Assembly: GCA_005882295.1 (NCBI GenBank)
Contig: VBAI01000011.1
Coordinates: 1,592 to 65,591 of the forward strand
Source of the DNA: Candidatus Segetimicrobium genomatis
Lineage (GTDB): Bacteria > Sysuimicrobiota > Sysuimicrobiia > Sysuimicrobiales > Kaftiobacteriaceae
Reading direction: 5' to 3'
Length of the DNA stretch: 64,000 bases
In this document: positions 1 to 62,252 of the stretch, one piece after another
Layout: every line of letters starts with the position of its first letter
Position numbering within the stretch: the stretch's first letter is position 1
Notes under the pieces: model-generated
The model's database searches: none
What the model was told of the DNA's origin: nothing
Seen by the model: only the letters and a program-made list of their open reading frames with translations
Program-made: the position numbers and the translations under genes

Positions 1-772
1 TCTCGCCTGGCGAGGTGAGCACATCGAGCGGGAGGTTCACGCGCAGGGCACGGCCTGGGATCAGGTGACGCGTGATGCCGGCGGGCAGCTTGACCGGCGC
101 GCGGGAGATCTCAAGGATGTCGCGCTTGGTGAAGGCGGGAAACACGACCACGGCCGCGACGGACCCGTACTCTTCCCTCAGCGCCTCCAGATCCGCGCTC
201 ATCACCCGGTAGATCCGGTTCGTGGTTTTGTATGCGTCCACCACGGCCGCCAGGGTCTCGGCCAGGGAATGGCGGGCAGACGCGGACACCTCGACGGCTC
301 CGCCTGATGTGATCACATAGCAGCCGCTGGACCGCTCGGGTGGGCGGCGCGAGGCCTCGGCCGGGCTGATGTCCCGGATGGAAAGCCCCCTGGCGCGCAA
401 GAGCCCAGGCAGGTCGACCGGCTGCGCGAGGAGGTGACACCAGACGTCCAACCTGACGGCAGGATCTTCGTACTCGACCACCTGGAGGAGTACCGCGGGC
501 GCTTCGAGGGCCAGCAGCGCGGTGGTGCGGTTGGCGCCGTCGAGGATCACAAAGCCGCCGTCGGAGCGCGGCGCCGCGATGGGCGGATTCCGCAAGACTC
601 CCTCGGTGCGCAGGCGCGTGACGAGCCGCTGCACCCGCGCAGGATCGGTGTCCTCGTGCAGGTGCACCTCGGCCCGGGGAACAATACGCAGATCGGGAAG
701 CGATCGTCCCTCCGGCAAACGCAGGGCCGCCCCGACTTTCGCCTTGTCGTCAGTCATTGTCTCAGCCAGTCT
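1..772 (-). CDS. ParB/sulfiredoxin-like domain protein, partial (C-terminus runs off the window start)
   Basis: Start codon is the reverse complement of 770-772. Translation MTDDKAKVGAALRLPEGRS...GFVILDGANRTTALLAL carries a ParB N-terminal-domain-like DG-x-x-R motif. High GC at third positions. Not in the ORF track because it has no stop inside the window. Confidence 0.45.
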
Positions 773-886
773 TCACAGTCTCCCCAGTCCTCCCAGTCTA
801 CCCAGTCTGTGTGCTCCTCCGGAAGGGCTTGGAGACTGGGAAGACCGTGGAGACCGGGAAGACTGGGTAGACTCGGCAGTTAGCGT
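766..886. repeat. Hairpin element family C (tandem CAGTCTNCC / GTCTACCCAGTCTTCCCAGTC units followed by inverted GGGAAGACTGGGTAGAC units)
   Basis: Direct reading: cagtcttcacagtctccccagtcctcccagtctacccagtc ... gactgggaagaccgtggagaccgggaagactgggtagac. Same family at 16686-16792 and 18607-18684. Confidence 0.8.
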
Positions 887-2628
887 CCCAGCTGTTTCGC
901 GAGATGGTCGATGACGTCAATCTTGGTGACAATTCCGGCAACCGCGCCATGATCCACGACGACGGCCGCGTTGCTGGACAGGAAGATGTCGGCCAGGACA
1001 TCGAGGGGGCTGTCGGGGTCGACGACCGGCGGAGCAGGATCGATGATGGGCTGGATCGGATCGGATGGCCGGTGCGATCCATCCAGCAGGTGCGTGAGCA
1101 GGTCCACTTCACTGATCATGCCCACCAGCCGGCCGTCCTCCAGCACGGGGAGTTGTGACACGTCATACTGCTTCATCTTGGCGACGACCTCGTTGACGGC
1201 ATCCGTGCGGGTGGCCGTGACCAGCGGGATCGTTCGCGAGCGCACCAGGTCGCCCACGGTCCCCAGTTCCCGCTCCAGCATGCCGTGCTCGCGCATCCAG
1301 TCGTCGGAAAAGATCTTCGACAGGTAGCGGGAGCCGGAGTCCGGCAGGATCACCACCATCCGCAGCCCGGCGCCCATCTCGGGGAGTGTGCGCGCGTACT
1401 TCAGCGCGCCGGCGACGGCCGCACCGCCGCTGCCGCCGCAGAACAAACCTTCCTCACGCACCAGCCGGCGCGTTGTCAAGAAGGCGTCGCGGTCGCTGAC
1501 CTGCACGACGTCATCCAGCACCGAGAAATCCATCGTCTTGGGGAGAAAGTCTTCGCCGATGCCTTCGACCTTGTACGTGTGCGGCTCTGGCATGGTGCCG
1601 GTCTTGAAGTAGTCATAGAAGACGGACCCCACGGGGTCGACGCCAATCACCCGCAGTCCCGGATGACGCTCCTTCAAAAACTTTCCGGCGCCGGAGATCG
1701 TGCCGCCCGTGCCCATGCTGGCCACCACGACGTCGAGACGTCCGCCGGTCTGCCGCCAGATCTCCGGGCCAGTGCTGTCGTAGTGCGCGTGCGGGTTGGC
1801 CGGGTTGGCGTACTGGTTGGCGTAGAAGCTGTTGGGTGTTTCTTCGGCGATGCGGCGGCTGACGTTGTAGTAACTGCGCGGATCCTCGGGGGCCACCGCG
1901 GTGGGAGTGATGATCACGCGCGCGCCGAAGGCCCGCAGCAGGCGAATCTTCTCTTCGGACATCTTATCCGGCATGACGAAGATAGTGCGATATCCGCGCA
2001 CCGCCGCGGCAATGGCCACGCCGACGCCGGTATTCCCGGATGTCGCCTCTACAATCGTGCCCCCCGGCCGCAGCAAACCGCGGCGCTCGGCGTCTTCGAT
2101 CATCGCCGGGCCAATACGGTCTTTCACCGAGCCGCCGGGGTTCAGATACTCCAGCTTGGCGACCAGATCGGCGCGGATGCCCCGGGTGACTTTGTGGAGT
2201 CGAACCAGCGGCGTCCGGCCAATGACCTCCAGCACCGTATCGTAGACCTCCTCGGGCGTGGCGGGCATTCCCGCCCGGCTCAGCCGGGGTGCCGGCACAG
2301 CCCGCCGCACGCGCCGGGACGCTGGGGATTTCACTTTCCGCGCCACGCTCTTGCCCCGACCTCCTGCCATCGCGGGAATGATCGATACCTCGTCGCCATC
2401 CTGGACCGGCGTGGAGAGCCCTTCGAGCTGGCGGATCTCGGTCCCATTGACGAAAATGTTGATGAAGCTGCGCACCTCCCCCGTCTCGTCACACAGCTGC
2501 TGGCGGATCCCAGGATATGTGCGCTCCAAGGCATCCAGCAGGGCGCGCATGCTGCGGCCGGCGGCCTCCACCTTGCTCTGGCCGCCCGTTGTACGGCGTA
2601 ACGGAGTTGGTATGTACACTGTCGTCAT
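880..2628 (-). CDS. CysO(MoaD/ThiS)-like sulfur-carrier domain fused to a PLP-dependent cysteine synthase / cystathionine beta-synthase domain and a C-terminal CBS pair
   Basis: The N-terminal ~90 aa end in IIPAMAGG and resemble M. tuberculosis CysO (VYIPTPLRRTTGGQSKV...FINIFVNG...DGDEVSIIPAMAGG). A basic linker follows, then a PALP domain with the GGSVKDRIG lysine motif and a GNTG glycine loop. Two CBS motifs lie at the C-terminus. It is a single uninterrupted ORF. Confidence 0.85.
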   Translation of the reverse strand: MTTVYIPTPLRRTTGGQSKVEAAGRSMRALLDALERTYPGIRQQLCDETGEVRSFINIFVNGTEIRQLEGLSTPVQDGDEVSIIPAMAGGRGKSVARKVKSPASRRVRRAVPAPRLSRAGMPATPEEVYDTVLEVIGRTPLVRLHKVTRGIRADLVAKLEYLNPGGSVKDRIGPAMIEDAERRGLLRPGGTIVEATSGNTGVGVAIAAAVRGYRTIFVMPDKMSEEKIRLLRAFGARVIITPTAVAPEDPRSYYNVSRRIAEETPNSFYANQYANPANPHAHYDSTGPEIWRQTGGRLDVVVASMGTGGTISGAGKFLKERHPGLRVIGVDPVGSVFYDYFKTGTMPEPHTYKVEGIGEDFLPKTMDFSVLDDVVQVSDRDAFLTTRRLVREEGLFCGGSGGAAVAGALKYARTLPEMGAGLRMVVILPDSGSRYLSKIFSDDWMREHGMLERELGTVGDLVRSRTIPLVTATRTDAVNEVVAKMKQYDVSQLPVLEDGRLVGMISEVDLLTHLLDGSHRPSDPIQPIIDPAPPVVDPDSPLDVLADIFLSSNAAVVVDHGAVAGIVTKIDVIDHLAKQLGR

Positions 2629-2649
2629 GGCCTTGCTACCCCGAACAGC

Positions 2650-4605: not shown

Positions 4606-4732
4606 ACAGTGAATCATGAATCATGTGTAGTGATTAGTGAATCGTGATTAGTGATTCGCCACACTACTCACATTGTGGTACATCGCCTCACCAGACTGGT
4701 TGCGAATCACTAATCACAAATCACCAATCACG
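4606..4732. repeat. Hairpin element family E (GTGATTAGTGAATCGTGATTAGTGATTCG ... CGAATCACTAATCACAAATCACCAATCAC)
   Basis: Tandem GTGATTA/GTGATTCG units with an inverted copy. Second copy at 39055-39162. Confidence 0.8.
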
Positions 4733-5924: not shown

Positions 5925-6040
5925 TCCTACCTACACAAACTACACGATCTACACAACCTACACAATCACCTGCAGAACCATCTGTTTGCGCTTTTGATTG
6001 TGTGGGTTGTGGAGTTTGTGTAGGTCGCGTAGGTTAGGTC
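5925..6040. repeat. Hairpin element family B (CTACACAAACTACACGATCTACACAACCTACACAATCACCTGCAGA ... TTGTGTGGGTTGTGGAGTTTGTGTAGGTCGCGTAGG)
   Basis: Tandem CTACACAA units with an inverted TTGTGTAG arm. Copies at 17605-17716 and 44995-45133 share the spacer motif CAAT(C/T)ACCT(G/A)C. Confidence 0.8.
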
Positions 6041-6869: not shown

Positions 6870-6960
6870 GCATCCTCCAAAGCGCAGTGAGTGGGAAACT
6901 TCGCTCAGGCTACCCTACTTCCTGATTGTCGTCAATCTGGCGGAGAACTGCAACCCGGGA

Positions 6961-8319: not shown

Positions 8320-8395
8320 CGACAGTCCCCCTCCGCCTCGCTGGAATCGTGATTCCGCGCGATTCGCGCCCCTGAGGAGAAATCCTTCCCGTTAT

Positions 8396-10114: not shown

Positions 10115-10172
10115 CGGCGGGACTAGGGACTAGGGACTTGGGACTGGTTACGGCTCGGCATCCCTAGTCGCC
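10115..10172. repeat. Family A tandem heptamer arm (GGGACTAGGGACTAGGGACTTGGGACTGG) with a weak inverted partner
   Basis: Lies in the 8-bp gap region between the ABC-ATPase start and the CYTH-DNPH1 stop, overlapping the gene ends. Confidence 0.6.
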
Positions 10173-11164: not shown

Positions 11165-11262
11165 GGAGAGCGTCTCGGGAACGCGGGAACGGGGGAACGC
11201 GGGAACAACTGCTCACGTTGTCCGCTCGCGTTCCCGTGTTCCCGCGATCCCGCGTTCCCGTC
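11165..11262. repeat. Hairpin element family F (GGGAACGCGGGAACGGGGGAACGCGGGAAC ... GTTCCCGTGTTCCCGCGATCCCGCGTTCCCG)
   Basis: Tandem GGGAACG units with an inverted CGTTCCC arm. Sits between the acyl-CoA dehydrogenase stop and the CYTH-DNPH1 start. Confidence 0.8.
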
Positions 11263-16794: not shown

Positions 16795-17601
16795 CTAGTG
16801 TTGACAAGCCGGGCAATAGAACGACGGCCTCCCACCCAGGCGCGCTTCTTTGATCGTGCCATCGCCGCGCGGGCAGCGCTGTCCGGCTCGACCATAGACC
16901 GCCAACCGCCAGCGGCCCATCCGGCCTGCGGCGTCCACAAACTCCGGCTCCCCGCCCGCCGCGATCGCCCGCCGCAGCACGCTACGGATCGACCGGTGGA
17001 GGACCCGTGTTTCCGCAGGCGTGAGCGATGACGCCGGACGGTCGGGGCGGATGCGGGCGGCGTGCAGGATCTCATGCGCCCACAGGTTCCCGATGCCGGC
17101 AATTCGTTCCTGGTCCGTCAGCAGTGCCCGGATGCTTCCGCGGCCCGCCAGCATCTGACGAAATCGCGCGGGCGTGAAGGTGGGAGAAAGAGGGTCTACA
17201 CCGAGTGAGGCCAGATACGCGACGCGATCCAGCTGAGGCGTCCGGTGCAATCCCAGCTCCGAGAGCTGCAGCTCGCGGAAGTGCAGGCTGCTGCCGTCGG
17301 AAAAAGCGATCACTACCGCAGTCTGCGCGTCCGGGGGGACCGCGGGGCGAACGAAGCGCAGCGTGCCCCACAGCTTGAAGTGAAAGATCAGTGTCCAGCC
17401 GCCGCTGAGCTGAAACAGCAGGGTCTTCCCGCGGCGGCTGACCCGTTCGATGCGCTTCCCAGCCAGCGCATCGGCAAATGCCTGCGGGCGGTGGGTGCGG
17501 ACGGCGGATGGGGACCGCACCTCTACCGACGCGATGACTTTGCCGCGGATCACGCGCTGCAGGCTTCGCTTGGCGGATTCGACTTCGGGAAGCTCAGGCA
17601 T
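16795..17601 (-). CDS. Formamidopyrimidine-DNA glycosylase / endonuclease VIII family (Fpg/Nei) paralog 1
   Basis: MPELPEVE N-terminus (catalytic Pro2/Glu3), H2TH region, C-terminal zinc finger CPRGDG...YCPACQ. Confidence 0.85.
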   Translation of the reverse strand: MPELPEVESAKRSLQRVIRGKVIASVEVRSPSAVRTHRPQAFADALAGKRIERVSRRGKTLLFQLSGGWTLIFHFKLWGTLRFVRPAVPPDAQTAVVIAFSDGSSLHFRELQLSELGLHRTPQLDRVAYLASLGVDPLSPTFTPARFRQMLAGRGSIRALLTDQERIAGIGNLWAHEILHAARIRPDRPASSLTPAETRVLHRSIRSVLRRAIAAGGEPEFVDAAGRMGRWRLAVYGRAGQRCPRGDGTIKEARLGGRPSFYCPACQH

Positions 17602-17604
17602 CCG

Positions 17605-17716
17605 AATCTACACAAACTACACAACCTACACAATTACCTACGTCGACTAACCACCGGCCATTATCGCGCTGCTTGTGATTGTGTAGATTGTGTAGGTCGT
17701 GTAGGTTGTGTAGGTT
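17605..17716. repeat. Hairpin element family B
   Basis: tctacacaaactacacaacctacacaattacct ... gtgattgtgtagattgtgtaggtcgtgtaggttgtgtagg. Confidence 0.8.
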
Positions 17717-18597
17717 CATTTCAGCAATCTCGACATCCGTCTATCAGCGTAAATCTTGCCGCCGGTCTGACACGCCGGGCAATAGTAGGTTTCCTTATCG
17801 GCAAAGTAGACTGTTTCGATGCGTGTGCGGCAGCGCGGGCACGGCTCGCCCCCGTGCCGGTGCACGCGGAGCAACTCAACCGGCTCGCGCGTTGGCAGCT
17901 GCGTTCCAAAACGGGTCCGGTGCTTCTGCAGCGCGGCAGCAAATACGCTCCGGATGGCGGCGTACAGCCTGGCCACCTCGTCGCTGGAGAGACGCGCGGC
18001 CGGCGCAAACGGCGACAGCTTAGCTTCCCACAGGATCTCATCCGCGAAAGCGTTCCCGATGCCCACGACATGGCGCTGCTGGGTGATCGCGCGTTTCAGC
18101 TGTCCCGGTTCCGCCTGGACGGCGCGGGCCAGCACATCGGCGGTGAACTGCTCACTGAGCGGATCCGGCCCTAACCCCGCCAGGGGCTCGCTCGACGCAG
18201 CATCCTGCGCGCGCAGCACATAGACCCCTGCCCGCTTTTTGGGCCCGGCTTCGTTCACGCGCAGTTCATCTCCCCCTTCGAGGAACAACCCGAACGCCAT
18301 CGGCTTGGGCGCCGGCGAGGCGCGGCCCTTGCGCGCTGCACTTCCGGCCCGCGCGATCTGCAGGCGGCCGTCGCGCATGAGGTGCATGACAAGGAGCAGA
18401 TCGTCTGAGAGATCGGACACGATGAGCTTACCGATCCGCCGGACGCGCTCGATGCGACGGCCGGCCAGCGCGCTGACCGGTGGGTCAAACGTTTTCACGA
18501 TGGCCGGACTGGGCACGCGCACCGACACAATCGTGTGACCCTCAATCTCGCGGGCGAGATTCTCTACCAGCACCTGGATGAATGGGAGCTCAGGCAT
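17716..18597 (-). CDS. Fpg/Nei family DNA glycosylase paralog 2
   Basis: MPELPF N-terminus and C-terminal zinc finger CPRCRTRIE...YYCPACQ. The ORF-track start at 18696 runs through repeat C and is rejected. Confidence 0.8.
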   Translation of the reverse strand: MPELPFIQVLVENLAREIEGHTIVSVRVPSPAIVKTFDPPVSALAGRRIERVRRIGKLIVSDLSDDLLLVMHLMRDGRLQIARAGSAARKGRASPAPKPMAFGLFLEGGDELRVNEAGPKKRAGVYVLRAQDAASSEPLAGLGPDPLSEQFTADVLARAVQAEPGQLKRAITQQRHVVGIGNAFADEILWEAKLSPFAPAARLSSDEVARLYAAIRSVFAAALQKHRTRFGTQLPTREPVELLRVHRHGGEPCPRCRTRIETVYFADKETYYCPACQTGGKIYADRRMSRLLK

Positions 18598-19873: not shown

Positions 19874-20388
19874 GGGTCGCCCGAGAGAAAGGGAATCAAG
19901 GCGGCGGCAACAGCCTGCTCAAGCGCAGCCTGACGATCGAGGAGTCCGCGGGTCAGCAAACCGATGGCTCCGAATTCCTCGTGGGCGTTCCCGTGACCCA
20001 GGTGTGCGTCGACGATCGCCCCGAGTTCCTCTCCCCGCAGCGTCCGCGACGCGATCCACTCGGGCAGCTGAAAACGCACCCCGCAGCTGAGCCCTTCCCG
20101 CCCGTGGCGGTCGACGACCGCCACCCAGGCGCACATCCACACGCCCCGCAAGTCTCGATGCACACCGCCCTCGATCCCAATCCCCAGATCGGCATCGGCG
20201 AGACGCCGCGCTTCCCGCGCGCGGTGCAACGCCCCGCGGATGGTTTCCTCGTCGCTGGTCGGCTGCGCCGGGACACCCGAGGCCACCGGCACGGGGACCA
20301 CCGTGGCGTTGGGGAACGCGCGGGCGCACACGGACTCGGTGGCGCGGATCTTCGACTCGCTGGTTGTCGATCCGATGGCAATCTTCAT
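19870..20388 (-). CDS. Non-canonical purine NTP phosphatase (inosine/xanthosine triphosphatase, YjjX/DUF84 family)
   Basis: ESGVPAQP...SDEET and IGIEGG motifs parallel E. coli YjjX. 172 aa. Confidence 0.8.
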   Translation of the reverse strand: MKIAIGSTTSESKIRATESVCARAFPNATVVPVPVASGVPAQPTSDEETIRGALHRAREARRLADADLGIGIEGGVHRDLRGVWMCAWVAVVDRHGREGLSCGVRFQLPEWIASRTLRGEELGAIVDAHLGHGNAHEEFGAIGLLTRGLLDRQAALEQAVAAALIPFLSGDP

Positions 20389-20397
20389 ACACGAAAC

Positions 20398-20476
20398 TAC
20401 GGGACTAGGGACTTGGGACTAGACTAGTCAACCACCAAGAGAGTCGTACTGTCCAGTCCCTGGTCCCCAGTCCCGC
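20398..20476. repeat. Hairpin element family A (GGGACTAGGGACTTGGGACTAG ... CAGTCCCTGGTCCCCAGTCCC)
   Basis: Sits in the divergent gap between yjjX-like and lgt. Other copies at 22990-23085, 35024-35105, 52337-52468, 60309-60386 and, partially, 10115-10172. Confidence 0.8.
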
Positions 20477-20525
20477 CCCTTGAGTTTGTCGACAACCTTC
20501 CGACCAGGATGGTATACTGCCCGCC

Positions 20526-21269
20526 GTGCATCCCGTGGTGCTTGAATGGGGTCCGCTGGTGATCCGCTGGTACGGGGTGATGATGGCGATTACCGTCCTC
20601 ACCGGCGTGGCGATGGCTCTGCGGGTGGGCCCCAGACTGGGCATACCGGCGCAGGAAATCGACCGTCTGACCCTGCCGTTTGTGCTGCTGGCGTTTGTCG
20701 GGGCGCGGCTCGGCTACGTGGTCTCCCACCCCGCCGAGTTCACCTCACCGGTGGAGATCCTTCGCGTCTACCACGGCGGGCTGACGTCTCACGGGGCCAT
20801 TGCCGGCGGCTTTGCGGCGCTGTGGTGGGCGTCGCGGCGCCGCGGGCTCCCGTTGTGGACCCTGGCCGACACCACCATTTGGGCTGTGCCGCTCGGCAAC
20901 ATCTTCGTGCGTTTCGGCAACTTCATGAACGGGGAACTCTACGGCGACGTGACGGCGCTGCCGTGGGGCGTGACCTTTCCCGGAGTCCCCGGCCCGCGCC
21001 ACCCGCTGCAGATCTACGAGATGGTCTTCGCGACCGCCATCCTCGCGCTCACGCTGCCGCTGGTGCGCAGGCGTCAGTTCCCCGGCCAGATCTTCTGGAC
21101 GGTCGTCATTCTGACGTCAGTGGGGAGGATCGTCCTGGACCTGCTTCGCAGCGAGGACCGCGTCTTCGGGGTGATGACGCTGGGACAGATTCCGGCGGCG
21201 ATTTTGATTGTGATCGGCGCGTGGTTTCTGGCACGTCATTCACCGCGCGCCAAGCGACTCGATGCCTAA
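20526..21269 (+). CDS. lgt: Prolipoprotein diacylglyceryl transferase
   Basis: VRFGNFMNGELYG signature and HP(L)QIYE motif. 247 aa polytopic protein. Confidence 0.9.
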   Translation: MHPVVLEWGPLVIRWYGVMMAITVLTGVAMALRVGPRLGIPAQEIDRLTLPFVLLAFVGARLGYVVSHPAEFTSPVEILRVYHGGLTSHGAIAGGFAALWWASRRRGLPLWTLADTTIWAVPLGNIFVRFGNFMNGELYGDVTALPWGVTFPGVPGPRHPLQIYEMVFATAILALTLPLVRRRQFPGQIFWTVVILTSVGRIVLDLLRSEDRVFGVMTLGQIPAAILIVIGAWFLARHSPRAKRLDA

Positions 21270-21275
21270 ACTATT

Positions 21276-21352
21276 CTGTCATTGCGAGCCCGCAGGGCGA
21301 AGCAATCTCCTCCAACGGGAGATCGCCACGGGGCTTCGCCCCTCGCGATGAC
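21276..21352. repeat. Hairpin element family I (GTCATTGCGAGC...GAAGCAATCTCC..GGAGATCGC...GCGATGAC)
   Basis: gtcattgcgagcccgcagggcgaagcaatctcctccaacgggagatcgccacggggcttcgcccctcgcgatgac. Relatives at 26083-26285 and 33119-33191. Confidence 0.8.
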
Positions 21353-21384
21353 TGCATACTCTCTTGCTCCCGCGTTCCCGTCCG

Positions 21385-21669
21385 CTATCCATTCCGATAC
21401 TGCACTCCATATCCTCCGCGGGGCAGGCGCCAGTCGATGTTGTGGTACGGGCAGCCTGTGAGGCACGACGTGCACTCCACGCAGTTCTCGTAGGACGCCG
21501 TCGTCTTCTCCCCGTCCCAGCTGTACACGTTCGCGGGGCAAAACGTGGTGCAGGGCCGGCCCCACTGGTCTCCACATTTTGTCAGGCAGATGTTGTTATC
21601 ACGAATAGTGATATGGCTCTGTTTGTCGTGCTTGTACGTGAGCAGGAAGAGCTTCTCTTCGAGCTTCAT
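21385..21669 (-). CDS. fixX: Ferredoxin-like protein FixX
   Basis: 94 aa with the FixX cysteine pattern (CLTKCGDQ..., CVECTSCLTGCP). Its ATG overlaps the fixC TGA (ATGA). Confidence 0.8.
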   Translation of the reverse strand: MKLEEKLFLLTYKHDKQSHITIRDNNICLTKCGDQWGRPCTTFCPANVYSWDGEKTTASYENCVECTSCLTGCPYHNIDWRLPRGGYGVQYRNG

Positions 21670-22970: not shown

Positions 22971-22989
22971 GAGGTCACCTCAAAAACAA

Positions 22990-23085: not shown

Positions 23086-23089
23086 TCAT

Positions 23090-26061: not shown

Positions 26062-26082
26062 GGGACGTAACCAGTCATCGCG

Positions 26083-39040: not shown

Positions 39041-39054
39041 AGGCATTGCGGGCT

Positions 39055-39162: not shown

Positions 39163-39172
39163 GGTTTGCGTG

Positions 39173-39499: not shown

Positions 39500-39518
39500 G
39501 GGGGAGTCTCCTCAGGAG

Positions 39519-39700
39519 ATTCATGCCCAGTATAGCAAGCCCCTGCCCAATTCCGGAACAACCGAACGGCAGTCCGTAATCCCATGAAAATCAGCAAAAT
39601 ACGGGGAAATGGGAAGAAAGGACCAGACGACAACAAAATTTCGCGGAATTAGGACTAGATTGGACTACAATTGACAATTTTACTCAATTTTGGCTTCATT
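39519..39700 (-). promoter_or_regulatory. Unusually AT-rich upstream region of the merR-like gene with a near-consensus sigma70-type promoter
   Basis: Minus-strand reading ...GGCTTGCTATACTGGGCATGAATCTCCTGAGGAGACTCCCCCATG. TATACT -10 is about 35 nt upstream of the ATG, with GAGGAG RBS. Further upstream there are ~150 bp at ~40% GC containing TTGACAATTTTACTCAATTTTGG. Confidence 0.4.
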
Positions 39701-39711
39701 TCTGCAGATTG

Positions 39712-43484: not shown

Positions 43485-44375
43485 GTGCGTTTCGCCACGT
43501 ACCAGCGGGGGAGAGAAGCGCGACTGGCATTTGTCGTCGAGGATCGGCTCGTGGACCTGGGCGCGGTCGCTCAGCGGAAGAAGACGAAGATACCCGCCGA
43601 CATGATTGGGGTGATTGCGGAGGTGCCCGCGAGCACGCTGCGCACGTTGTGGGGGGAGGCGCAGGCCTGGGTGAACGCGAGGCGTCCATCCATCCCCCTC
43701 TCGCGCGCCAGACTGCTGGCGCCAATCCAGCGCCCTCGCAAGAACATCATGTGCATGGGCCGCAACTACATCGAGCACGCCAGAGAAACCGGGGGCGCAC
43801 CGCCGGAGGTCCCGGTGTTCTTCACGAAACCGCCGACCTGCGTCATCGGTCCGGGGGCGCCGGTCACCTATCACACCGTGACGCAGGCGCTGGATTACGA
43901 GGTCGAGCTGGCGGTGGTGTTCGGCCGCCGCGGCCGCGACATCCCCGCCGCGAAGGCATTGGACTACGTTTTCGGATACACTATCATGAACGACGTCACC
44001 GCCCGCGATCTGCAGCGGCGGCACCAGCAGTGGTTCAAGGGGAAGTCGCTCGACACGTTCGCTCCGCTTGGACCGTGGATCGTCCACCGCTCGGCCATCC
44101 CGGATCCGCAGCGCCTGCGCCTGAGGATGCGGGTGAACGGCGAACTGCGCCAGAATGCGACGACCGCGAGCATGATCTTCGGTGTGGCGCAGTTGATTGA
44201 GAGCTTATCGGCCGGCATGACCATCGAACCGGGCGACATCATGGCGACCGGTACCCCGGAGGGCGTGGGGATGGGGTTCAATCCACCAAAATGGCTGCAC
44301 GTCGGCGACGTCGTCGAAGCGGAAGTCGAGGGCATCGGGCTGCTGCGCAACCACATCGCCGCGGCCAAACCCTAA
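43485..44375 (+). CDS. Fumarylacetoacetate hydrolase (FAH) family protein
   Basis: CMGRNYIEHARE, LDYEVELAVV, and TGTPEGVG motifs. Confidence 0.85.
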   Translation: MRFATYQRGREARLAFVVEDRLVDLGAVAQRKKTKIPADMIGVIAEVPASTLRTLWGEAQAWVNARRPSIPLSRARLLAPIQRPRKNIMCMGRNYIEHARETGGAPPEVPVFFTKPPTCVIGPGAPVTYHTVTQALDYEVELAVVFGRRGRDIPAAKALDYVFGYTIMNDVTARDLQRRHQQWFKGKSLDTFAPLGPWIVHRSAIPDPQRLRLRMRVNGELRQNATTASMIFGVAQLIESLSAGMTIEPGDIMATGTPEGVGMGFNPPKWLHVGDVVEAEVEGIGLLRNHIAAAKP

Positions 44376-44412
44376 CTGCGGAATTAGGGATCCGGGATTA
44401 GGGATCAGAATA

Positions 44413-45057
44413 ATGCGCGTTGCAAAACGAGTACGGCGCTGCGCGTGGGCGGACCATAGTCCATTGATGCGCGCGTATCACGATCGGGAGTGGGGGAATC
44501 CCCGGCACAGCGACCGGGTGCTCTTTGAGTTTCTGATCCTCGAGGGGATGCAGGCCGGGCTGAGCTGGGACACCATTCTGCGGAAGCGGAACAACTTTCG
44601 CCGCGCGTTCTCGCGATTTGATCCCAGGCGGGTCGCGCGCTACGCCTCAGGCGATATCCGGCGGCTGATGACCGACGCGGGCATTATCCGCAACCGCGCC
44701 AAGATCCTGGCGGCGATTGCCAACGCCCGGGCGTTCCTGGAGGTGGTGGGCGAGTTCGGATCGTTCAATAGATACATCTGGGGCTTCGTGGACGGCCGCC
44801 CGCTACTGAACCGGCGCCGTACCCTGGCCCAGATCCCCGCGGAAAGCCCGGTCTCCGTGGCCATGAGCGCAGACCTGCGGCGCCGTGGGTTTCGCTTCGT
44901 GGGCCCGACCATTTGCTACGCGTTCATGCAGGCCGTGGGCATGGTGAACGACCATACCGTCGGGTGCTTCCGCCGCGCCCAACTCCTGAAAGCTACCCCA
45001 CGACCTACGCAACCTACACGAACTACACAATCTACACAATCACCTGCAAAGACCTGA
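44413..45057 (+). CDS. tag: DNA-3-methyladenine glycosylase I
   Basis: YHDREWGNP and FEFLILEGMQAGLSW signatures. The C-terminal ~20 aa (PRPTQPTRTTQSTQSPAKT) is encoded by repeat family B. Confidence 0.85.
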   Translation: MRVAKRVRRCAWADHSPLMRAYHDREWGNPRHSDRVLFEFLILEGMQAGLSWDTILRKRNNFRRAFSRFDPRRVARYASGDIRRLMTDAGIIRNRAKILAAIANARAFLEVVGEFGSFNRYIWGFVDGRPLLNRRRTLAQIPAESPVSVAMSADLRRRGFRFVGPTICYAFMQAVGMVNDHTVGCFRRAQLLKATPRPTQPTRTTQSTQSPAKT

Positions 45058-45133
45058 CAAGCTGTCCTGCAGATTGTGCCCCTGATCTTGTCGTTTGTGT
45101 AGATTGTGTAGGTTATGTAGGTTGTGTAGATTG
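44995..45133. repeat. Hairpin element family B
   Basis: cgacctacgcaacctacacgaactacacaatctacacaatcacctgca ... gtttgtgtagattgtgtaggttatgtaggttgtgtagattg. Confidence 0.8.
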
Positions 45134-45166
45134 AGTGCGTTGGCGAATCACAAATCACCGTGTCCT

Positions 45167-51494: not shown

Positions 51495-51572
51495 CAGGAA
51501 ACGGGAAACAGGAAACGGGAAGCGACTAACCTGAAGCGTTTACCGTTTCCCGTTACCCGTTTCCCGTTACCG
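51495..51572. repeat. Hairpin element family G (GGAAACGGGAAACAGGAAACGGGAA ... TTCCCGTTACCCGTTTCCCGTTACC)
   Basis: Tandem GGAAACG units with an inverted arm. Confidence 0.8.
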
Positions 51573-52336: not shown

Positions 52337-52468
52337 AATTGCGGGACTGGGGACTTGGGACTGGTAACTGCCAACATACGACTCTGTTTTCCAGATTCCT
52401 GTTGACCGGGTCACAGCACTAACGTCGTTTGAATCTAGTGCCTAGTCCCCAGGCCCTAGTCCCGCAGT
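52337..52468. repeat. Hairpin element family A with a ~75-nt spacer
   Basis: aattgcgggactggggacttgggactgg ... cctagtccccaggccctagtcccgcagtt. Confidence 0.85.
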
Positions 52469-52474
52469 TTCGTG

Positions 52475-54724
52475 TTAGACGACGGGGGATCTGAGCAAGC
52501 GCAGCCGCGCATCCCTTGCGGCCGTCCGTACATCCGGGAAGGGCAACCCTTCGATCTGCATCAACACTTCGGCGGCCTGGAGGATGATACGCTGCAGATC
52601 CCCCTCCTCGGCATGACTCTCCGCCACCAGCGCGGACCAGTCTGCCGCGCGCATCCACGCCATCACCACATCCGCGCGGCGCTCGGCCGGTGGGGGAAGG
52701 CGCCGGCGCGACTGCGGATCCCATTCCGGCTCGCACTGCTGCACGAGGCCATCGGGTGGCAGCGCGTGCTGCCGCTCGAGGACGTCGAGCTCGCGAGCCA
52801 GCTTGATCAACGCACCCAGCCCCGCCTCTCCACCGCGATACGGGGCACGCTCCGTCGCCAGCGCCCCGGCCACCGCGGCCCACGCCGCGGTGGACCCGCC
52901 GATCAAGCTGCGCCGGACGATCTCGGCCAGCACGAGCATCCTGGGATGACGGAGCTCTGACGCCCATAAGCCCTCAGGCGTGAGGCGGGAGTTCTCGTCC
53001 AGATAGCCCAGACGCCGCAGCACCGCGGCGCGCCGCGTGAACTCATCGGCCAGCGCGCCTTCAAGACTGTGCAAGGCCTGACGCAACGAGGAGCGCCGCA
53101 GCTCCCGCGCCCGCAGCGCTTCAAGGGTGGCCAGGCAGCGTTGCTCCACCGGACACGTCGCGCAGGGCCAGGCCGTGAGCTCAGCCGACAGCGCGGCGAT
53201 ATCCGCCTGCGTCCCGCGCTGCTTCTGCAGTTTGCGCAACCGCTCGGCCATCCGCTCGTACCGGCCGCGGGTGATCAGCCGGTCATCGCAGGGCCGCTCG
53301 GCCAGGTCATCGGGCGGGATCGACCCGATGGCATTCTTGAGGCGCTGGACTTCTCCACGCTTCTCGTAAGCCGCGAGCGACCGGTTCAGTTCCCGCAACG
53401 CCTCCCCCAGCGAGACTCGGCGTAAGAGGTTGAGGACCTGGACGTACCCGGGAGAAAACGATGAGGTCACGGGGTCGGGCTCGGCGTCAATCAAGGCCAG
53501 GCCCTCGCGCGCTTCATCGCGTGACGCTGCCGGCAACACCACGACGCCAATGGTGTCCTTCCCGCGGCGGCCCGCCCGGCCGCTCATCTGATGGAACTCG
53601 GTGGCGCTCAGCACCACGGGGCCTTCAGGACTGTTGCGGACCAACGTCGAGAGCGCGACCGTGCGGGCGGGGACGTCCAGGCCGGCGGCCAGTGTCGTCG
53701 TGGCGCACACAACGCGGATGAGCCCACGCGCCAGCAAATCCTCCACGGCGAGCCGCCAGGCTGTGGTGTGGCCGGCGTGATGGGGAGCGATGCCGGAGTC
53801 AATGATCGCGTTGCGGAACGCGTGCCCGCGCAGGAACGGGAACTCACGCTCCCAGCGGCCAAACGCGGCCGCGCGCAGCTCCGGGCCAAACGCCCGCAGC
53901 GCCGCCAGTTCCCGCGCCGCCTCGTCGCACTGCCGGCGTGACGGATAGAAGAGGATCGCGGGCAACAGGCTGTAGTGCTCCAGCTCGCGGATGAGGCCCG
54001 CCAGCCAGCCGGACGGGCGCCCATCGGACGGCAGGTGGCCCAGGGCATCCGGCGGAATTAGCCGCCCGCGTCCATCGGCCAGCACGTACCGCAGTGGCAC
54101 CGGCCGTACCGCCTCGACGATCACCTCGGGCCGCTTCCCGCGGACTTCGGCCAGCCAGCTGGCGATCACCTCGGCGTTTGGAAAGGTCGCAGAGAGGAGC
54201 AGGAGCCGGCTGCGGCGGGGCGCCAGAAGCAGAATCTCTTCCCAGGCCGTGCCGCGCTCGCGGTCGGACAGGTAGTGGGCTTCGTCCAGCACAATCAACT
54301 GGGGAGTCAGCCGGTCACCGTACAGGGCGTTGCGGAGGATTTCCGTCGTCGCGACGATCACGGGCGCCTGGGCGTTGATGCGGCGCTCACCGGTCAGCAG
54401 TCCGACCGACTCCGCCCCGTACAACCCTGAAAATCGGTGGAACTTCTGGTTGGAAAGCGCTTTCAGGGGGGTGGTGTACCAGGCTACACCGCCGGCGGTG
54501 AGGATCTCGCTGATCGCCTGCTCGGCAATCCAGGTCTTCCCGCTGCCGGTCGGCGCGGCCACCAACACGTCCCCGGCGCGCACGGCCGCCAGCGCCGCTT
54601 CCTGGAATGGCGCAGGGACAAACGGGGCCGGCGGAGGCGTACCGACATCCTGGATAATCGCGCGGAGCTTACCAGACGTGGGACGTCGGACAGGCTGCCG
54701 CGCGGCGGGTCTGGATGTTGCCAT
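52475..54724 (-). CDS. DEAD/DEAH-box superfamily-2 helicase, Ski2/HelY-like
   Basis: Walker A AAPTGSGKT, DEAH-like VLDEAHY, motif III LSAT, motif VI QMSGRAGRRG, plus a C-terminal ~300-aa helical domain. Start MATSRPAA at 54724 is inferred. Confidence 0.8.
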   Translation of the reverse strand: MATSRPAARQPVRRPTSGKLRAIIQDVGTPPPAPFVPAPFQEAALAAVRAGDVLVAAPTGSGKTWIAEQAISEILTAGGVAWYTTPLKALSNQKFHRFSGLYGAESVGLLTGERRINAQAPVIVATTEILRNALYGDRLTPQLIVLDEAHYLSDRERGTAWEEILLLAPRRSRLLLLSATFPNAEVIASWLAEVRGKRPEVIVEAVRPVPLRYVLADGRGRLIPPDALGHLPSDGRPSGWLAGLIRELEHYSLLPAILFYPSRRQCDEAARELAALRAFGPELRAAAFGRWEREFPFLRGHAFRNAIIDSGIAPHHAGHTTAWRLAVEDLLARGLIRVVCATTTLAAGLDVPARTVALSTLVRNSPEGPVVLSATEFHQMSGRAGRRGKDTIGVVVLPAASRDEAREGLALIDAEPDPVTSSFSPGYVQVLNLLRRVSLGEALRELNRSLAAYEKRGEVQRLKNAIGSIPPDDLAERPCDDRLITRGRYERMAERLRKLQKQRGTQADIAALSAELTAWPCATCPVEQRCLATLEALRARELRRSSLRQALHSLEGALADEFTRRAAVLRRLGYLDENSRLTPEGLWASELRHPRMLVLAEIVRRSLIGGSTAAWAAVAGALATERAPYRGGEAGLGALIKLARELDVLERQHALPPDGLVQQCEPEWDPQSRRRLPPPAERRADVVMAWMRAADWSALVAESHAEEGDLQRIILQAAEVLMQIEGLPFPDVRTAARDARLRLLRSPVV

Positions 54725-54826
54725 GTGCAGTCTATGATACCCTACGCCCTCAGCGGATTCCACCACAGCACGGGACCAATTTAAGAAGTTTATTTTCACT
54801 GATCTAGATGACTTCGGCAGGGACGC

Positions 54827-54882
54827 AGTCGCGCTGTCGCGTAGTCGCGTTATCGCGTCGTCGCGTTATCGCGTTGTCGCGG
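54827..54882. repeat. Seven direct tandem 8-mers (GTCGCGCT GTCGCGTA GTCGCGTT ATCGCGTC GTCGCGTT ATCGCGTT GTCGCGGG) with no inverted partner
   Basis: In the divergent gap between the helicase and the sarcosine-oxidase-like gene. Confidence 0.8.
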
Positions 54883-56951: not shown

Positions 56952-57335
56952 ATGGCGTCGAAGAGTCTGTACGTGGGGAATTTGCCATATGATGTTACCG
57001 AGCAAGATCTGCGGACCCTATTTGAAGCATGGGGTCCAGTGGCCGAAACCCGCCTCATTGCCTCGCGCGGGTTCGGGTTTGTGGAGGTGCCGGTGGAGAA
57101 AGCCGCCGACGCCATCACGGCCATGAACGGCAAGGAATACAAGGGCCGCGCGCTCGTGGTCAATGAGGCGCGCCCCCGCAGCGAGCGACCGTCCTTCCGG
57201 GATCGCGACGGCGGCGGAGGCTGGCGGCCCGGCGGGAGCGGTCCCCCGCGAAGTGGACGGCCCGGCGGTGGTGGTGGCGGCGGAGGTCAGCGGAAAGGCC
57301 GGCGTGATCGCGGAGACCGAGGGCCGCGGTGGTGA
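56952..57335 (+). CDS. RRM-domain RNA-binding protein with Gly/Arg-rich tail
   Basis: RNP2 LYVGNL and RNP1 RGFGFVEV. C-terminal GGGGWRPGGSGPP...GGGGGGG. Confidence 0.85.
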   Translation: MASKSLYVGNLPYDVTEQDLRTLFEAWGPVAETRLIASRGFGFVEVPVEKAADAITAMNGKEYKGRALVVNEARPRSERPSFRDRDGGGGWRPGGSGPPRSGRPGGGGGGGGQRKGRRDRGDRGPRW

Positions 57336-57551: not shown

Positions 57552-58688
57552 TTGACAGCTACATCCGAGGCGCCGGCCAAGTTCGGCGACCTCACCCTTC
57601 GCCCGGACACACTCCGGGCCATACAGGCGCTGGGCTGGGAACAGCCCACGCCCATTCAGAGCAAGGTCATTCCGCTCTTGCGTGAAGGCCGTGACCTCGT
57701 CGGTCAGGCGCAGACGGGCTCCGGCAAGACGGGCGCGTTCGGGATTCCGATCGTCGAACGCCTTGATCCTGCGCAGCGGCTCATCCAAGCGCTCGTGCTG
57801 GCTCCGACCCGTGAGCTGGCCATTCAGGTCAGCGACGAGCTTCGCGCCCTCGGCCGGTTCCGCGGCCTGGCCGTCGTCACGCTGTACGGCGGGCAGCGCA
57901 TCGAGCAGCAGTTTACCGACCTGCGCAAGCGGCCGCACATTGCGGTCGCCACTCCAGGCCGGTTGCTCGACCACGTTCAGCGCGGCACGATCAGGTTGAA
58001 TTCGGTTACGACGGTCATCCTCGACGAAGCCGACCGCATGCTGGACATGGGCTTCCTGCCCGATGTCTCCCGCATTCTCGCCCTGACGCCGGCCACGCGG
58101 CAAACCGCCCTGTTCTCCGCCACAATGCCGCAGGCCGTCCGTGCGATCGCGGAGCGCCAGATGCGCAATCCGGTCTGGGTGCGCATCGCGGCGTCCAAAC
58201 CAACCGTTGATTCAGTGACGCAGTTCTATCTGGAGGTCGCAGAAGAGGACAAGGTCAAGGCGCTGCGCCGGCTGTTACGCCATGAGCCGATTGAGTCAGC
58301 GCTGGTCTTCCGGCGCACCCAATATCGCGTGGACAGGCTGGCGAAGTCGCTGGGAAGAGACCAGCGCGTAGGCGTGCTGCACGGCGGGATGCGCCAGGGC
58401 GCGCGCCTGGCAGCCCTGCGCGCGTTCGAAGAAAGGCGCACCCCGATCCTCATCGCCACCAACGTGGCGTCGCGGGGACTGGATCTGCCGGAGATCTCAC
58501 ATGTCATCAACTTTGACATGCCGGAGGACGTCGAGACGTACGTGCACCGGGTGGGACGCACCGCCCGGATGGGACGAGCCGGGACGGCGATCACTTTCGT
58601 GGGACAGCACGACATTGAGATGTTTGACCAGCTCAAGCGCACCTTCGGTCCTTCGCTCCAGCGCCATCCGCTGAATATCTACCAGTAA
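57552..58688 (+). CDS. DEAD-box ATP-dependent RNA helicase
   Basis: Q-motif region, AQTGSGKT, PTRELA, DEAD (ILDEADRMLDMGF), SAT, HRVGRTARMGRAG. TTG start with AAGGAGG RBS 12 nt upstream. Confidence 0.9.
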   Translation: MTATSEAPAKFGDLTLRPDTLRAIQALGWEQPTPIQSKVIPLLREGRDLVGQAQTGSGKTGAFGIPIVERLDPAQRLIQALVLAPTRELAIQVSDELRALGRFRGLAVVTLYGGQRIEQQFTDLRKRPHIAVATPGRLLDHVQRGTIRLNSVTTVILDEADRMLDMGFLPDVSRILALTPATRQTALFSATMPQAVRAIAERQMRNPVWVRIAASKPTVDSVTQFYLEVAEEDKVKALRRLLRHEPIESALVFRRTQYRVDRLAKSLGRDQRVGVLHGGMRQGARLAALRAFEERRTPILIATNVASRGLDLPEISHVINFDMPEDVETYVHRVGRTARMGRAGTAITFVGQHDIEMFDQLKRTFGPSLQRHPLNIYQ

Positions 58689-60292: not shown

Positions 60293-60308
60293 GCAAGGAC
60301 CTCCAAGA

Positions 60309-60386
60309 CTACGGGACTGGGGACTAGGGACCGGTAACCTACATGTTTGCTTTACAAGTCCCCAGTCCCTATTCCCTAGTCCCGTA
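60309..60386. repeat. Hairpin element family A
   Basis: acgggactggggactagggaccgg ... agtccccagtccctattccctagtcccgta. Confidence 0.85.
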
Positions 60387-60435
60387 TTTTCCGTTTGGCA
60401 GGCATCGCCCACGATGGATTCGAAATAGTCGGGCC

Positions 60436-61101: not shown

Positions 61102-61887
61102 ATGCCGGAACTACCCGACGTTGAGACTGTTGCCCGCCGGCTTCGCCGGACTGTCGGGGGCCGGCGCATCACCGGGGTGCGCGTGCTCGCGCCGCCGACG
61201 GTCCGTTCGTCGCCTCCGCGACGGTTCGTCCGAGAACTGACCGGCCGCTCTGTGCGCACGGTGGACCGCCGGGGCAAGTATCTGCTCATCCGGCTGAGCG
61301 GTTCGCGCACACTCGTCGTTCATTTGCGCATGACCGGCGACTTCACGCTCGTGCCAGGCGCCACGCCGGTGCACCCGCACACCCGCGTCATCCTGCAATT
61401 CGGCCGAGCCGACCTGCGCTTCATTGATCAGCGACGATTCGGCCACATGGACCTGGTGCCGTCTAACGTCGAATTCGCGCCCGTGGCCCGCCTGGGCCTC
61501 GAGCCGCTCAGCGCCTCGTTCACTCTGACGCGCTGGAACGGCATGCTGCATGGCCGTCGTGGCACCATTAAGTCTCTGCTGCTGCGTCAAGACCTGATCG
61601 CCGGTATCGGCAATATCTATGCTGACGAGATCCTCTGGCAGGCTCGCGTACATCCGGCCAGACCGGTTCACCGGCTGCGACATGGAGAACTGGCCCGGCT
61701 GTACCGGATCGTTCGCCGCGTCCTGCGCCGCGCGGTCACTCACCTATCGCGCTACGGCCGCCCCGTGGGCCGGTTTCTGGAGGTGCGGGGGGAACGCGAC
61801 ATGCCGTGCCCCCGATGCGGCCGACCCATTCGTGCGGCCTCCATCGCCGGCCGCACCACCTACTTCTGCCCCCACTGCCAGCGCTAA
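61102..61887 (+). CDS. Formamidopyrimidine-DNA glycosylase (Fpg/MutM family) paralog 3
   Basis: MPELPDVE N-terminus, H2TH, zinc finger CPRCGRPI...YFCPHCQ. Confidence 0.85.
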   Translation: MPELPDVETVARRLRRTVGGRRITGVRVLAPPTVRSSPPRRFVRELTGRSVRTVDRRGKYLLIRLSGSRTLVVHLRMTGDFTLVPGATPVHPHTRVILQFGRADLRFIDQRRFGHMDLVPSNVEFAPVARLGLEPLSASFTLTRWNGMLHGRRGTIKSLLLRQDLIAGIGNIYADEILWQARVHPARPVHRLRHGELARLYRIVRRVLRRAVTHLSRYGRPVGRFLEVRGERDMPCPRCGRPIRAASIAGRTTYFCPHCQR

Positions 61888-62049
61888 CCCCAGCACGGAT
61901 GTTGCCCTTGCAGGGCGCGGAAGTACGTGTTAGAGTAAGCGGCACACCGCAAGGACGGGGACTGTACGAGCAGCACCTGCGTGAGCGAGCGTCACCCATC
62001 GGATGGAAGGTGATGCCGTAGGGAGCTCGGATCCCACCCCCTGAGCGGG

Positions 62050-62252
62050 CCAACGAATTGCGTTGAAACGTTGGAGCGTTGAAACGTTGGAACGATAAGG
62101 CCAGTCGATTCGACGCTCTGACCTTCAATCAAGAAGTGAGCCGGGCGCCTTCCGATACGAGGTAGGAGAGCCGGACCTAGCGGCGTTGACGTGAGCGGAT
62201 TGTAGTTGCGCTTCAACGTTCCAACGCTTCAACGTTCCAACGTTCGTTGGGC
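62050..62252. repeat. Hairpin element family H (GCGTTGAAACGTTGGAGCGTTGAAACGTTGGAACG ... CGCTTCAACGTTCCAACGCTTCAACGTTCCAACGTTCG) with a ~110-nt spacer
   Basis: Flanked by the complementary GGGCCAACGAA / TTCGTTGGGCC. Confidence 0.8.

Follow-up and report, generated by a model that had tools for sequence, protein, structure and literature searches.

The 64,000-nucleotide stretch analysed here (hereafter the window; contig VBAI01000011.1, positions 1,592 to 65,591) comes from Candidatus Segetimicrobium genomatis, and two thirds of its larger gene junctions are occupied by repeat elements, most of them of one design, in which a short oligonucleotide repeated in tandem faces its own reverse complement across a loop. 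Several families of such elements, built from different units, share a single terminal heptamer, AAYTRCG, and are gained, lost and replaced at the same junctions among close relatives. [quoted passage not shown]

The window is 65% G+C and contains densely packed housekeeping genes, located mostly on the minus strand, including a complete nuoA-N operon followed by fixCX; no tRNA genes were found in it. Tandem Repeats Finder (TRF) revealed about 60 short arrays with a period of 7, 8 or 9 that cluster in pairs, and an inverted-repeat finder showed the members of these pairs to be reverse complements placed 12-122 nt apart. After merging of the TRF arrays, and with a complementary partner required within 170 nt, 13 strict pairs were obtained in the window and none in any of 30 dinucleotide-preserving shuffles, while the merged arrays numbered 71, against a mean of 17.4 in the shuffles. 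Inspection added five hairpins (B1, A1, D2, A4 and C3), whose arms are too degenerate or too short for the threshold of the pipeline. The curated gene map has 33 gaps of 40 nt or more, and an element is present in 22 of them (18 tandem-arm hairpins, three palindromes of family I and one solo array), which confirms the original prediction, made from this sequence alone, that hairpin elements occupy most gene junctions. Two further solo arrays lie in gaps shorter than 40 nt and two arrays within coding sequences (one at the end of nuoM, the other in a hypervariable nuoG linker). The 24 junction elements and the two coding arrays are thus dispersed over the whole 64 kb and largely non-coding, and elements make up 3.7% of the window.

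A typical hairpin arm consists of 3-5 tandem copies of a 7-9 nt unit. [quoted passage not shown] At co-directional junctions, 75-98% of the gap is typically taken up by the element, whose start lies 1-15 nt past the upstream stop codon and whose end lies 10-20 nt short of the start codon that follows; divergent and convergent junctions contain elements as well. RNA folding, proposed earlier as a check, showed that all elements except the solo arrays A0 and K1 fold far better than shuffled sequences (z from -2.0 to -12.7, and -3.7 or better for every folding element but the truncated C3). A comparison with Rfam had also been suggested: cmscan of both strands of the whole window gave no match at the gathering score. 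A literature search on the family I sequence returned primer coincidences only. The elements are as follows (z, folding score against shuffles; strand given where assigned).

C1, 766-873: hairpin with CCAGTCTWC 9-mer arms, between hyp252 and a ThiS-PALP-CBS gene, co-directional on the minus strand; minimum free energy -63, z -4.4
D1, 2650-2734: hairpin with GTCTWCTTR 9-mer arms, starting 1 nt past the upstream stop codon; z -7.7
E1, 4617-4731: hairpin with GTGATTM 7-mer arms, the 3' arm overlapping the stop codon of a NIF3-like gene
B1, 5929-6034: hairpin with CTACACAAN 9-mer arms and inner motif AATCACCTGCA; z -7.9
A0, 10119-10145: (GGGACTN)x4 as an unpaired solo arm, inner motif GGTTAC, in a 20-nt gene junction; no fold, z +0.8
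F1, 11176-11260: hairpin with CGGGAACG 8-mer arms, starting 4 nt past the stop codon of an acyl-CoA dehydrogenase gene; z -6.1
C2, 16687-16791: hairpin with GTCTWCCCR 9-mer arms
B2, 17604-17717: hairpin with CTACACAAN arms, occupying 98% of the Fpg1/Fpg2 gap; z -7.8
C3, 18608-18685: C-type element, complete in its 5' array but truncated in its 3' arm; z -2.0
A1, 20396-20476: hairpin with GGGACTN arms and outer motif AACTACG, in the divergent NTPase/lgt junction
I1, 21278-21355: family I palindrome GTCATTGCGAG...CTCGCGATGAC, without tandem units, in the convergent lgt/fixX junction
A2, 22988-23085: hairpin with GGGACTN arms and AACTGCG...CGCAGTT at its two ends, between nuoN and fixC, followed by a T-run; z -12.7
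I2, 26073-26270: family I palindrome into which a 117-nt palindromic insert is nested (about 26106-26240), in the nuoL/nuoM junction
D2, 29516-29611: hairpin with GTCTACTTG arms and outer motif AACTACG, in the nuoH/nuoI junction
I3, 33119-33191: family I palindrome in the nuoEF/nuoG junction
A3, 35026-35107: hairpin with GGGACTN arms between nuoD and nuoEF, from 3 nt past the stop codon to 10 nt before the next start codon
E2, 39062-39160: hairpin with GTGATTM arms in the merR/aminotransferase junction
J1, 44374-44406, plus strand: solo array of GGGATYN units with AACTGCG ahead of the array
B3, 44999-45136: hairpin with CTACACAAN arms and inner motif AATCACCTGCA in a convergent junction; its 5' arm encodes the last ~20 codons of the adenine glycosylase open reading frame (ORF)
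G1, 51495-51572: hairpin with GGAAACG 7-mer arms
A4, 52337-52469: hairpin with GGGACTN arms, AATTGCG...CGCAGTT ends and an 81-nt loop
K1, 54827-54881: solo array (GTCGCGTT)x7 in a divergent junction
A5, 60307-60388: hairpin with GGGACTN arms in a divergent junction
H1, 62056-62250: hairpin with arms of the 16-mer GAAACGTTGGAGCGTT, outer motif AATTGCG and a 122-nt loop
nuoM tail array, 24527-24557, minus strand: solo (GAGTCAC)x4.4, perfect, in the last 11 codons of nuoM, lengthening the protein tail by ~15 residues
nuoG array, 30997-31031, minus strand: (GGATCCA)x5 inside nuoG, encoding GSRIQDPGSRIQ in a hypervariable linker; relatives are without the array

The inventory and coordinates of the original prediction were essentially right, as were its four nuo junctions (I2, D2, I3 and A3) and its family copy numbers: five hairpins and one solo arm (10119-10145) in family A, three copies in B, three in C (one with a truncated 3' arm), two each in D and E, and one each in F, G and H. 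It had missed the solo arrays J1 and K1 and both arrays in coding sequence (24527-24557 and 30997-31031). Family F, given there as GGGAACG, is built of an 8-mer unit and family H of a 16-mer (2 x 8), while family I, assigned to the tandem-oligomer design, proved to be a conventional palindrome, GTCATYGCGAG...CTCGCRATGAC, at all three of its sites. Possible relics of decayed elements were also seen, namely AACTGCAACCCGGGACTAGGG beside a stop codon (6940-6960), a small GGAATCGTGATTCC hairpin (8345-8375) and a single AATCAC unit within the 19-nt nuoI/nuoJ spacer (29003-29016).

The stems had been described as long and perfect. They are in fact 72-92% complementary, with mismatches that recur one unit apart and fall, in almost all units, on the degenerate position. 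Among the A-type elements, only 3 of 27 cells have the N of GGGACTN in a Watson-Crick pair, and typical arms oppose (GGGACTG)n to the complement of GGGACTA-GGGACTT-GGGACTA; in the same stems the core of each unit is conserved and one position is free. Five to six unlinked A copies agree in unit, outer motif AACTRCG, inner motif GGTAAC and arm polarity. The spacer motif reported as conserved in family B, AATCACCTGCA, is common to B1 and B3 in exact form and occurs as a variant in the remaining copy, whereas loops are otherwise unrelated between copies of one family.

The modular architecture with interchangeable oligomers that had been proposed was borne out, and a common end motif can be added to it. 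In ~120 kb of lineage DNA (the 64 kb window and ~56 kb of relatives), AAYTRCG occurs at 59 sites, 19 of which lie directly 5' of an array and read into it, where ~0.8 would be expected. The units so preceded belong to at least six families (GGGACT, GGGACC, GGGATY, GTCTWC..., GTGATTC and the 16-mer unit of H). The general layout is accordingly the terminal heptamer AAYTRCG, (unit)n, a variable loop of 12-122 nt, (unit')n and the complement CGYARTT, and the 18 hairpins, with loops in this range, are convergent array pairs of the type known from Xanthomonas. Since AAYTRCG is common to array ends across unit families, either a shared origin or a shared step of recognition is favoured over independent local growth. 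A terminal motif common to several unit families was not found in the published descriptions of heptamer arrays that were consulted, to which it is an addition.

Six contigs (L001-L006) from six different samples, with 98.6-99.8% identity to the window, contain the same elements, and related elements are present in a metagenome-assembled genome (MAG) at NCBI and on JGI contigs. The elements are genuine genomic sequence; an assembly artefact, which had been named as the outcome that would overturn the original prediction, is excluded by their recurrence in independent assemblies from six samples. The NuoH sequence of the window is identical on 85 contigs, and NCBI assigns this protein to 'Bacillati bacterium ANGP1'. 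ANGP1 is a candidate phylum described from Angelo meadow soil (PMC7305173). The host is not cyanobacterial, as indicated by this name, by nearest genomes labelled Armatimonadota and by the presence of nuoE, F and G in the nuo operon.

Among the strain contigs, internal indels are all within A2 and I2, and elements other than A2 (and the I2 insert) are nearly invariant. The 117-nt nested insert of I2 is present in the window and in five strain contigs and is absent from L004 (14334-14410). Differences between the window and the 99.5% strains fall nearly all in a tract of ~250 bp around A2 (22900-23150), with 32 substitutions inside A2 and 17-18 in its flanks, flanking coding ends included. In-place rewriting of GGGACT to GGGATT at A2 is disfavoured, as the divergent tract spans the flanking gene ends, and the GGGATT allele was probably imported by recombination. 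Apparent strain polymorphisms at A2 (L003, over 22944-23106) and beside I2 (L005, next to 26283-26337) turned out to be scaffolding N-runs, and L087 has an N-run at a hairpin as well (1024-1029). Short-read assemblies are evidently broken by the elements, because N-runs of metagenome scaffolds fall exactly at or beside hairpins.

Comparison with related genomes, another check that had been proposed, was performed on syntenic regions fetched with NuoH and a Ski2-like helicase as anchors. The relatives comprised L001-L006 (~99.5% nucleotide identity), L087 and L088 (95% NuoH identity), L089 and L211 (89%), and the more distant L090 and L212 (about 78-83%), L007 (82%) and L008 (68%). Gene order is conserved across them, but the content of the junctions is not. 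The nuoH/nuoI junction holds a D-type element in the window, a C-type element in the 95% relative, a GTCTTCCAG type in the 89% relative and a non-tandem palindrome in L007, and is empty in L090. The nuoI/nuoJ spacer, of 19 nt in the window, is 209 nt long in L087, with a (GTGAATA)x8 hairpin, and 155 nt in L089, with a family I element and a solo array; a 4-nt overlap of the NTPase and alaX genes in the window contrasts with a 103-nt hairpin in L089. G1, K1 and A5 are absent from L211 (K1 also from L212), A4 and H1 are retained in L211, and the same relative carries elements at junctions that are compact in the window. No element occurs at any junction in 43 kb of the L090/L212 lineage, which has the same gene order and nuo genes spaced by -1 to 65 nt.

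Elements are thus gained, lost and replaced by other families at orthologous junctions over roughly 5-15% protein divergence, and they have been copied between loci or gained as whole units. Because of this turnover, and of the sister lineage without any element, they are not required for the nuo operon. Other non-tandem palindromes were noted at junctions of the relatives: a CCCTTCGACTCGC...GCGAGTCGAA type in two lineages (L007 2362-2450; L211 5900-6040) and TGCCGTACCAACTTGAT...ATCAAGTTGGTACGGCA twice in L211 (15474-15565 and 17482-17575). As regards the genes, nuoE and nuoF (33207-35015, minus strand) are fused into a single ORF of 602 aa in the window, as in each of the six strain contigs, and are separate in L087, L089 and L090.

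The two arms of an element change together. At nuoN/fixC, the unit is GGGACTN in the window, GGGATTN in the 99.5% strains (in all eight units of both arms) and GGGACCN in L089, so that unit variants are kept alike in both arms. Across nine A-type stems, covariation (UA to CG) was seen at the two core positions of the unit that vary, with both sides changed in 6 of 22 pairs, and 90% of the stem cells are paired; sliding the partner by one column lowers this to 52% or less. Arrays can also expand in place: the nuoM tail has no units in L090, two imperfect ones in L089 and 4.4 perfect ones in the window. Arm lengths likewise differ between orthologous elements, a variation of the slippage type seen in long SSRs.

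Taken together, the elements resemble REP sequences, their inverted doublets (REPINs) and MITEs in behaviour, and the heptamer arrays of long SSRs and STRR in structure. Array growth and homogenisation would proceed by replication slippage, and the arms may be kept matched by template switching within the element, that is, by quasi-palindrome correction; the periodic mismatches would persist because long perfect palindromes are unstable in DNA. Dispersal would need a trans-acting activity recognising the terminal motif, no gene for which was seen in the ~120 kb. Elements would persist nowhere but between a stop codon and the ribosome-binding site that follows, where co-transcribed copies may fold back on themselves, and the operon would still work because the folded element keeps stop and start codons close. 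Any effect on mRNA stability or processing would be secondary.

Several observations weigh against dispersal with tolerance. Loops differ completely between copies of one family, unlike those of typical MITEs, and neither a transposase, nor a REP-associated tyrosine transposase (RAYT), nor another mobilising gene was found in the 64 kb window and ~56 kb of relatives, a result of Pfam scans of nearly all window genes and of the genes of L087, L089 and L211. Insertion sequences were absent from every lineage sequence fetched. The terminal motif is not flanked by a direct duplication, and no target-site duplication or clean empty/filled boundary could be defined, filled and empty alignments being too diverged. 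The covariation of the arms, which only moderately exceeded its shuffle control (16 of 500), derives from few independent events (three unit variants) and is for that reason supportive, not conclusive. A genome-wide concerted switch of unit (GGGACT at six window loci, GGGACC at three L089 loci) was considered and rejected, because the Ski2/M78 element of L211, which belongs to the L089 lineage, is GGGACT, so that this lineage has both kinds. Finally, the nuoH/nuoI junction is occupied in three ANGP1 lineages as well as in Acidobacteriota and Anaerolineales, and such repeated occupancy could reflect selection for a hairpin at this place instead of tolerance.

The last point leads to the main rival, which we consider unlikely although it fares best among the alternatives: the elements may be selected cis-acting mRNA structures that block 3' exonucleases, direct endonucleolytic processing or couple translation, and so tune subunit stoichiometry, by analogy with REP sequences and bacterial interspersed mosaic elements (BIMEs) and with the stem-loops of operons subject to selective RNA processing and stabilisation. 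It would account for the high stability of the folds (-40 to -80 kcal/mol, z as low as -12.7), for their position directly after stop codons in nuo and other operons, with 10-20 nt left for the next ribosome-binding site, for complementarity kept through unit changes, and for a junction that stays occupied while the family changes, as at nuoH/nuoI, where unrelated tandem-arm hairpins occur in Acidobacteriota and Anaerolineales. An equivalent proposal has been made for STRR hairpins (PMC2670836). However, over 27 co-directional elements neither stability (summed dG -1467 kcal/mol sense, -1432 kcal/mol antisense) nor G-U pairs as opposed to A-C pairs (86 G-U pairs sense, 71 antisense) showed an asymmetry between sense and antisense. 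The selected role is also opposed by the compact, element-free junctions of the L090/L212 lineage with the same gene order, by elements in divergent promoter regions (A1, A5 and K1) and convergent junctions, by gains and losses between relatives of 89-95% identity, and by the solo arms A0, J1 and K1, of which A0 and K1 are without a fold.

The narrower suggestion that the hairpins act as terminators or attenuators found no support. A T-run follows only one of 30 elements, namely A2 (GTTTTTG), at the end of the nuo operon; the elements thus do not combine a GC-rich hairpin with a direct U-tract as intrinsic terminators do. A terminator scan of positions 20001-40000 flagged no full element hairpin, its one hit inside an element being a 5-bp stem in the loop of D2, and the sister lineage dispenses with elements altogether. 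The best sigma-70-like promoter match of the nuo region (TCGACA-18-TATACT with TG) is located at 20489-20518 (plus strand), directly after A1 and upstream of lgt.

A purely local origin, in which a short inverted repeat grows by stem-segment slippage and template-switch copying without any movement, and shared units reflect a mutational bias towards certain heptamers, appears less likely still. The nuoM tail array did grow in place, solo arrays are often seen, each locus has its own loop, the matches listed include GGGACTN arrays on many unrelated contigs of high GC, and heptanucleotide arrays are the commonest long SSR class, attributed to polymerase slippage (Mrazek et al. 2007, summarised in PMC4679880). 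One terminal motif at 19 array ends in six families would, on the other hand, be hard to obtain independently, and the inner motifs and arm polarity common to unlinked copies would be left unexplained. Complete hairpins of 100-200 nt, moreover, stand where close relatives have 19 nt or a gene overlap, with no intermediates.

It is very improbable that the units primarily serve as binding sites of a DNA- or RNA-binding protein, or that G-rich arms form G-quadruplexes, with inversion being incidental. The A, F and C-type arms do offer four GGG tracts at 7-9 nt spacing, like the quadruplex-forming GGGAATC of Xanthomonas (PMC4692102). For TAACTGA heptamers, binding by a protein has been proposed (PMC4679880), the unit core is conserved with one position free, and the window has genes for an RRM protein and RNA helicases, although the last point is circumstantial only. 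Quadruplex formation is not general, because families B, D, E and H are without G tracts; at least eight unrelated units would each require a binding specificity of their own, close relatives have different units at the same junction, and a sister lineage has no element at all.

REP sequences carry at the foot of their hairpin a conserved GTAG tetranucleotide, which is what a RAYT recognises. Mobilisation of REP pairs by a Y1 (IS200/IS605-like) transposase, present in a single copy at another place in the genome, is the least probable alternative: although the elements are extragenic and abundant, occur as inverted doublets and singlets like REPINs and REP singlets (PMC3116915, PMC3337134), end in a motif with GTAG/CTAC-like tetranucleotides (CGTAGTT) and need have no transposase nearby if the RAYT is single-copy, the arms are direct tandem repeats (the solo arm A0 being unfolded, z +0.8) and so fall outside the definition of REP because they are not themselves imperfect palindromes, no RAYT was found in the ~120 kb, and many unit families occur together where each RAYT normally has one REP family. 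The likeness to REP, BIME and MITE sequences noted in the original prediction therefore holds for placement and behaviour (intergenic, intra-operon, dispersed and palindromic) and fails for the definition of the REP arm.

Among the neighbouring genes, three paralogs of the Fpg/Nei family of DNA glycosylases lie within the 64 kb (16795-17601, 17716-18597 and 61102-61887), two of them adjacent, in addition to an adenine (3-methyladenine) glycosylase gene (44413-45057). A gene for a bacterial RRM-domain protein (56952-57335) adjoins one for a DEAD-box helicase (57552-58688), and a Ski2/HelY-like helicase with a DSHCT domain is encoded nearby (52475-54766).

The design extends beyond the lineage. 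When 80 nuoH loci of other species (1.41 Mb) were passed through the same pipeline, 19 tandem-arm hairpins with unrelated units were detected, and five full shuffles yielded none. Acidobacteriota account for 14 (at 10 of 24 loci), Chloroflexota for three and one deltaproteobacterial MAG for two. The loci concerned are given below.

Loci outside the lineage: Acidobacteriota L028, L030, L032, L036, L041, L053, L058, L063, L072 and L076; Chloroflexota L018, L054 and L079; and L039

Units in the nuo operons of these phyla include AGTTCTC, ATTGAGTC, AATTTGGT and CGATTTA; several hairpins stand just after nuoH, and several 3' arms run right up to the following ATG, where no Shine-Dalgarno sequence is obvious. 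Metagenomes were also scanned for three GGGACTN units, and the matches listed belong mostly to unrelated high-GC organisms, on contigs of mostly 60-72% G+C. Among the matches listed, 28 of 98 GGGACTN arrays have an inverted partner, located downstream in 25 cases (G-rich arm first) and upstream in three, a bias that fits founder descent and not random inversion.

Tandem-heptamer arrays (STRR, long SSRs, GGGAATC and TAACTGA) are a long-standing curiosity without an established generating mechanism or function. The present case goes beyond those published in that many unit families share a single terminal motif in one genome, which points to a common origin or recognition step, in that graded relatives (99.5%, 95%, 89% and about 80%), including an element-free sister lineage, display turnover at identical junctions, and in that the design recurs in several soil phyla. 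Whether spread is selfish or growth local, and whether the elements are neutral passengers or mRNA elements, can now be tested with existing metagenomes and metatranscriptomes. A bolder and quite doubtful extension of dispersal would be a new kind of non-autonomous mobile element, in which a trans-acting enzyme recognises AAYTRCG and builds or copies the arms by reiterative templated synthesis, unit families arising by change of template. If so, it would provide a mechanism for STRR and other heptamer arrays, unexplained since 1990, and related machinery would account for the design in Acidobacteriota, Chloroflexota, Xanthomonas and cyanobacteria. On the practical side, the hairpins break short-read assemblies (as N-runs) and lengthen or create spurious ORFs, and annotators of MAGs should mask them.

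With regard to known systems, MITEs such as Correia and NEMIS are, like the present elements, small, non-autonomous and provided with inverted ends, and they lie between operon genes without breaking the operon. Chunjie is a further example of this class. Here, in contrast to MITEs, neither a target-site duplication nor a related insertion sequence was seen, the loop is not conserved and the inverted ends consist of tandem units. REP sequences, REPINs and BIMEs are likewise extragenic, palindromic, abundant, present as inverted doublets and singlets, found within operons and assembled as mosaics of modules, and REPIN populations are vertically inherited yet evolve within the genome (PMC3116915, PMC3337134). 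A REP, however, is a short imperfect palindrome tied to a RAYT, whereas the arms described here are direct tandem repeats with no RAYT in the ~120 kb.

In structure, the elements are closer to arrays already described, and the statement that they belong to no described repeat class did not survive, since inverted pairs of heptamer arrays have been published for Xanthomonas (PMC4692102) and cyanobacteria (PMC2670836). The GGGAATC arrays of Xanthomonas form 70-75 convergent inverted pairs, usually of four units, about 90% intergenic and of unknown function (Rehm et al. 2015, PMC4692102). Like the present elements, they are dispersed heptamers with one degenerate position, in arrays of ~4 units close to a neighbouring ORF, capable of forming stem-loops, with array length varying between species and the single or paired type being kept (PMC4692102). 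They differ in having one unit family with no terminal motif reported, against at least eight families and an end motif here, and in sharing 83% of sites between two species, where turnover here is rapid (PMC4692102); the present elements are also far denser (about 2 per 10 kb), include 8-, 9- and 16-nt units and comprise several families without G tracts.

Cyanobacterial STRR sequences share with them several heptamer families per genome, intergenic and intra-operon sites and some hairpins; those between hupS and hupL have a proposed role in transcript stability or translational coupling (PMC2670836). In Nostoc, GGGGA(C/T)T arrays are known, of which GGGGACT is a rotation of the family A unit GGGACTG; few of them are paired, they reach 26 units and their genomes are low in GC (PMC4692102), whereas here the hairpin pair is dominant, with 3-5 units, in an unrelated soil lineage of 65% GC. 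The long SSRs of 5-11 nt covered by the survey of Mrazek et al. 2007 (summarised in PMC4679880), for which polymerase slippage is the proposed source, are also comparable: heptanucleotide arrays are enriched in the non-coding part of large genomes, patchy in phylogeny and located just upstream of start codons. The TAACTGA arrays described in Beggiatoaceae and other long SSRs consist of direct repeats only (a single indirect one among 170 TAACTGA sets) and have neither the hairpin design nor a shared terminal motif (PMC4679880). The design is therefore of a known, mechanistically unsolved kind, here unusually dense, multi-family, equipped with an end motif and subject to fast turnover; what is new is the shared terminal motif, the coupling of the arms, the rapid turnover at junctions and the cross-phylum distribution.

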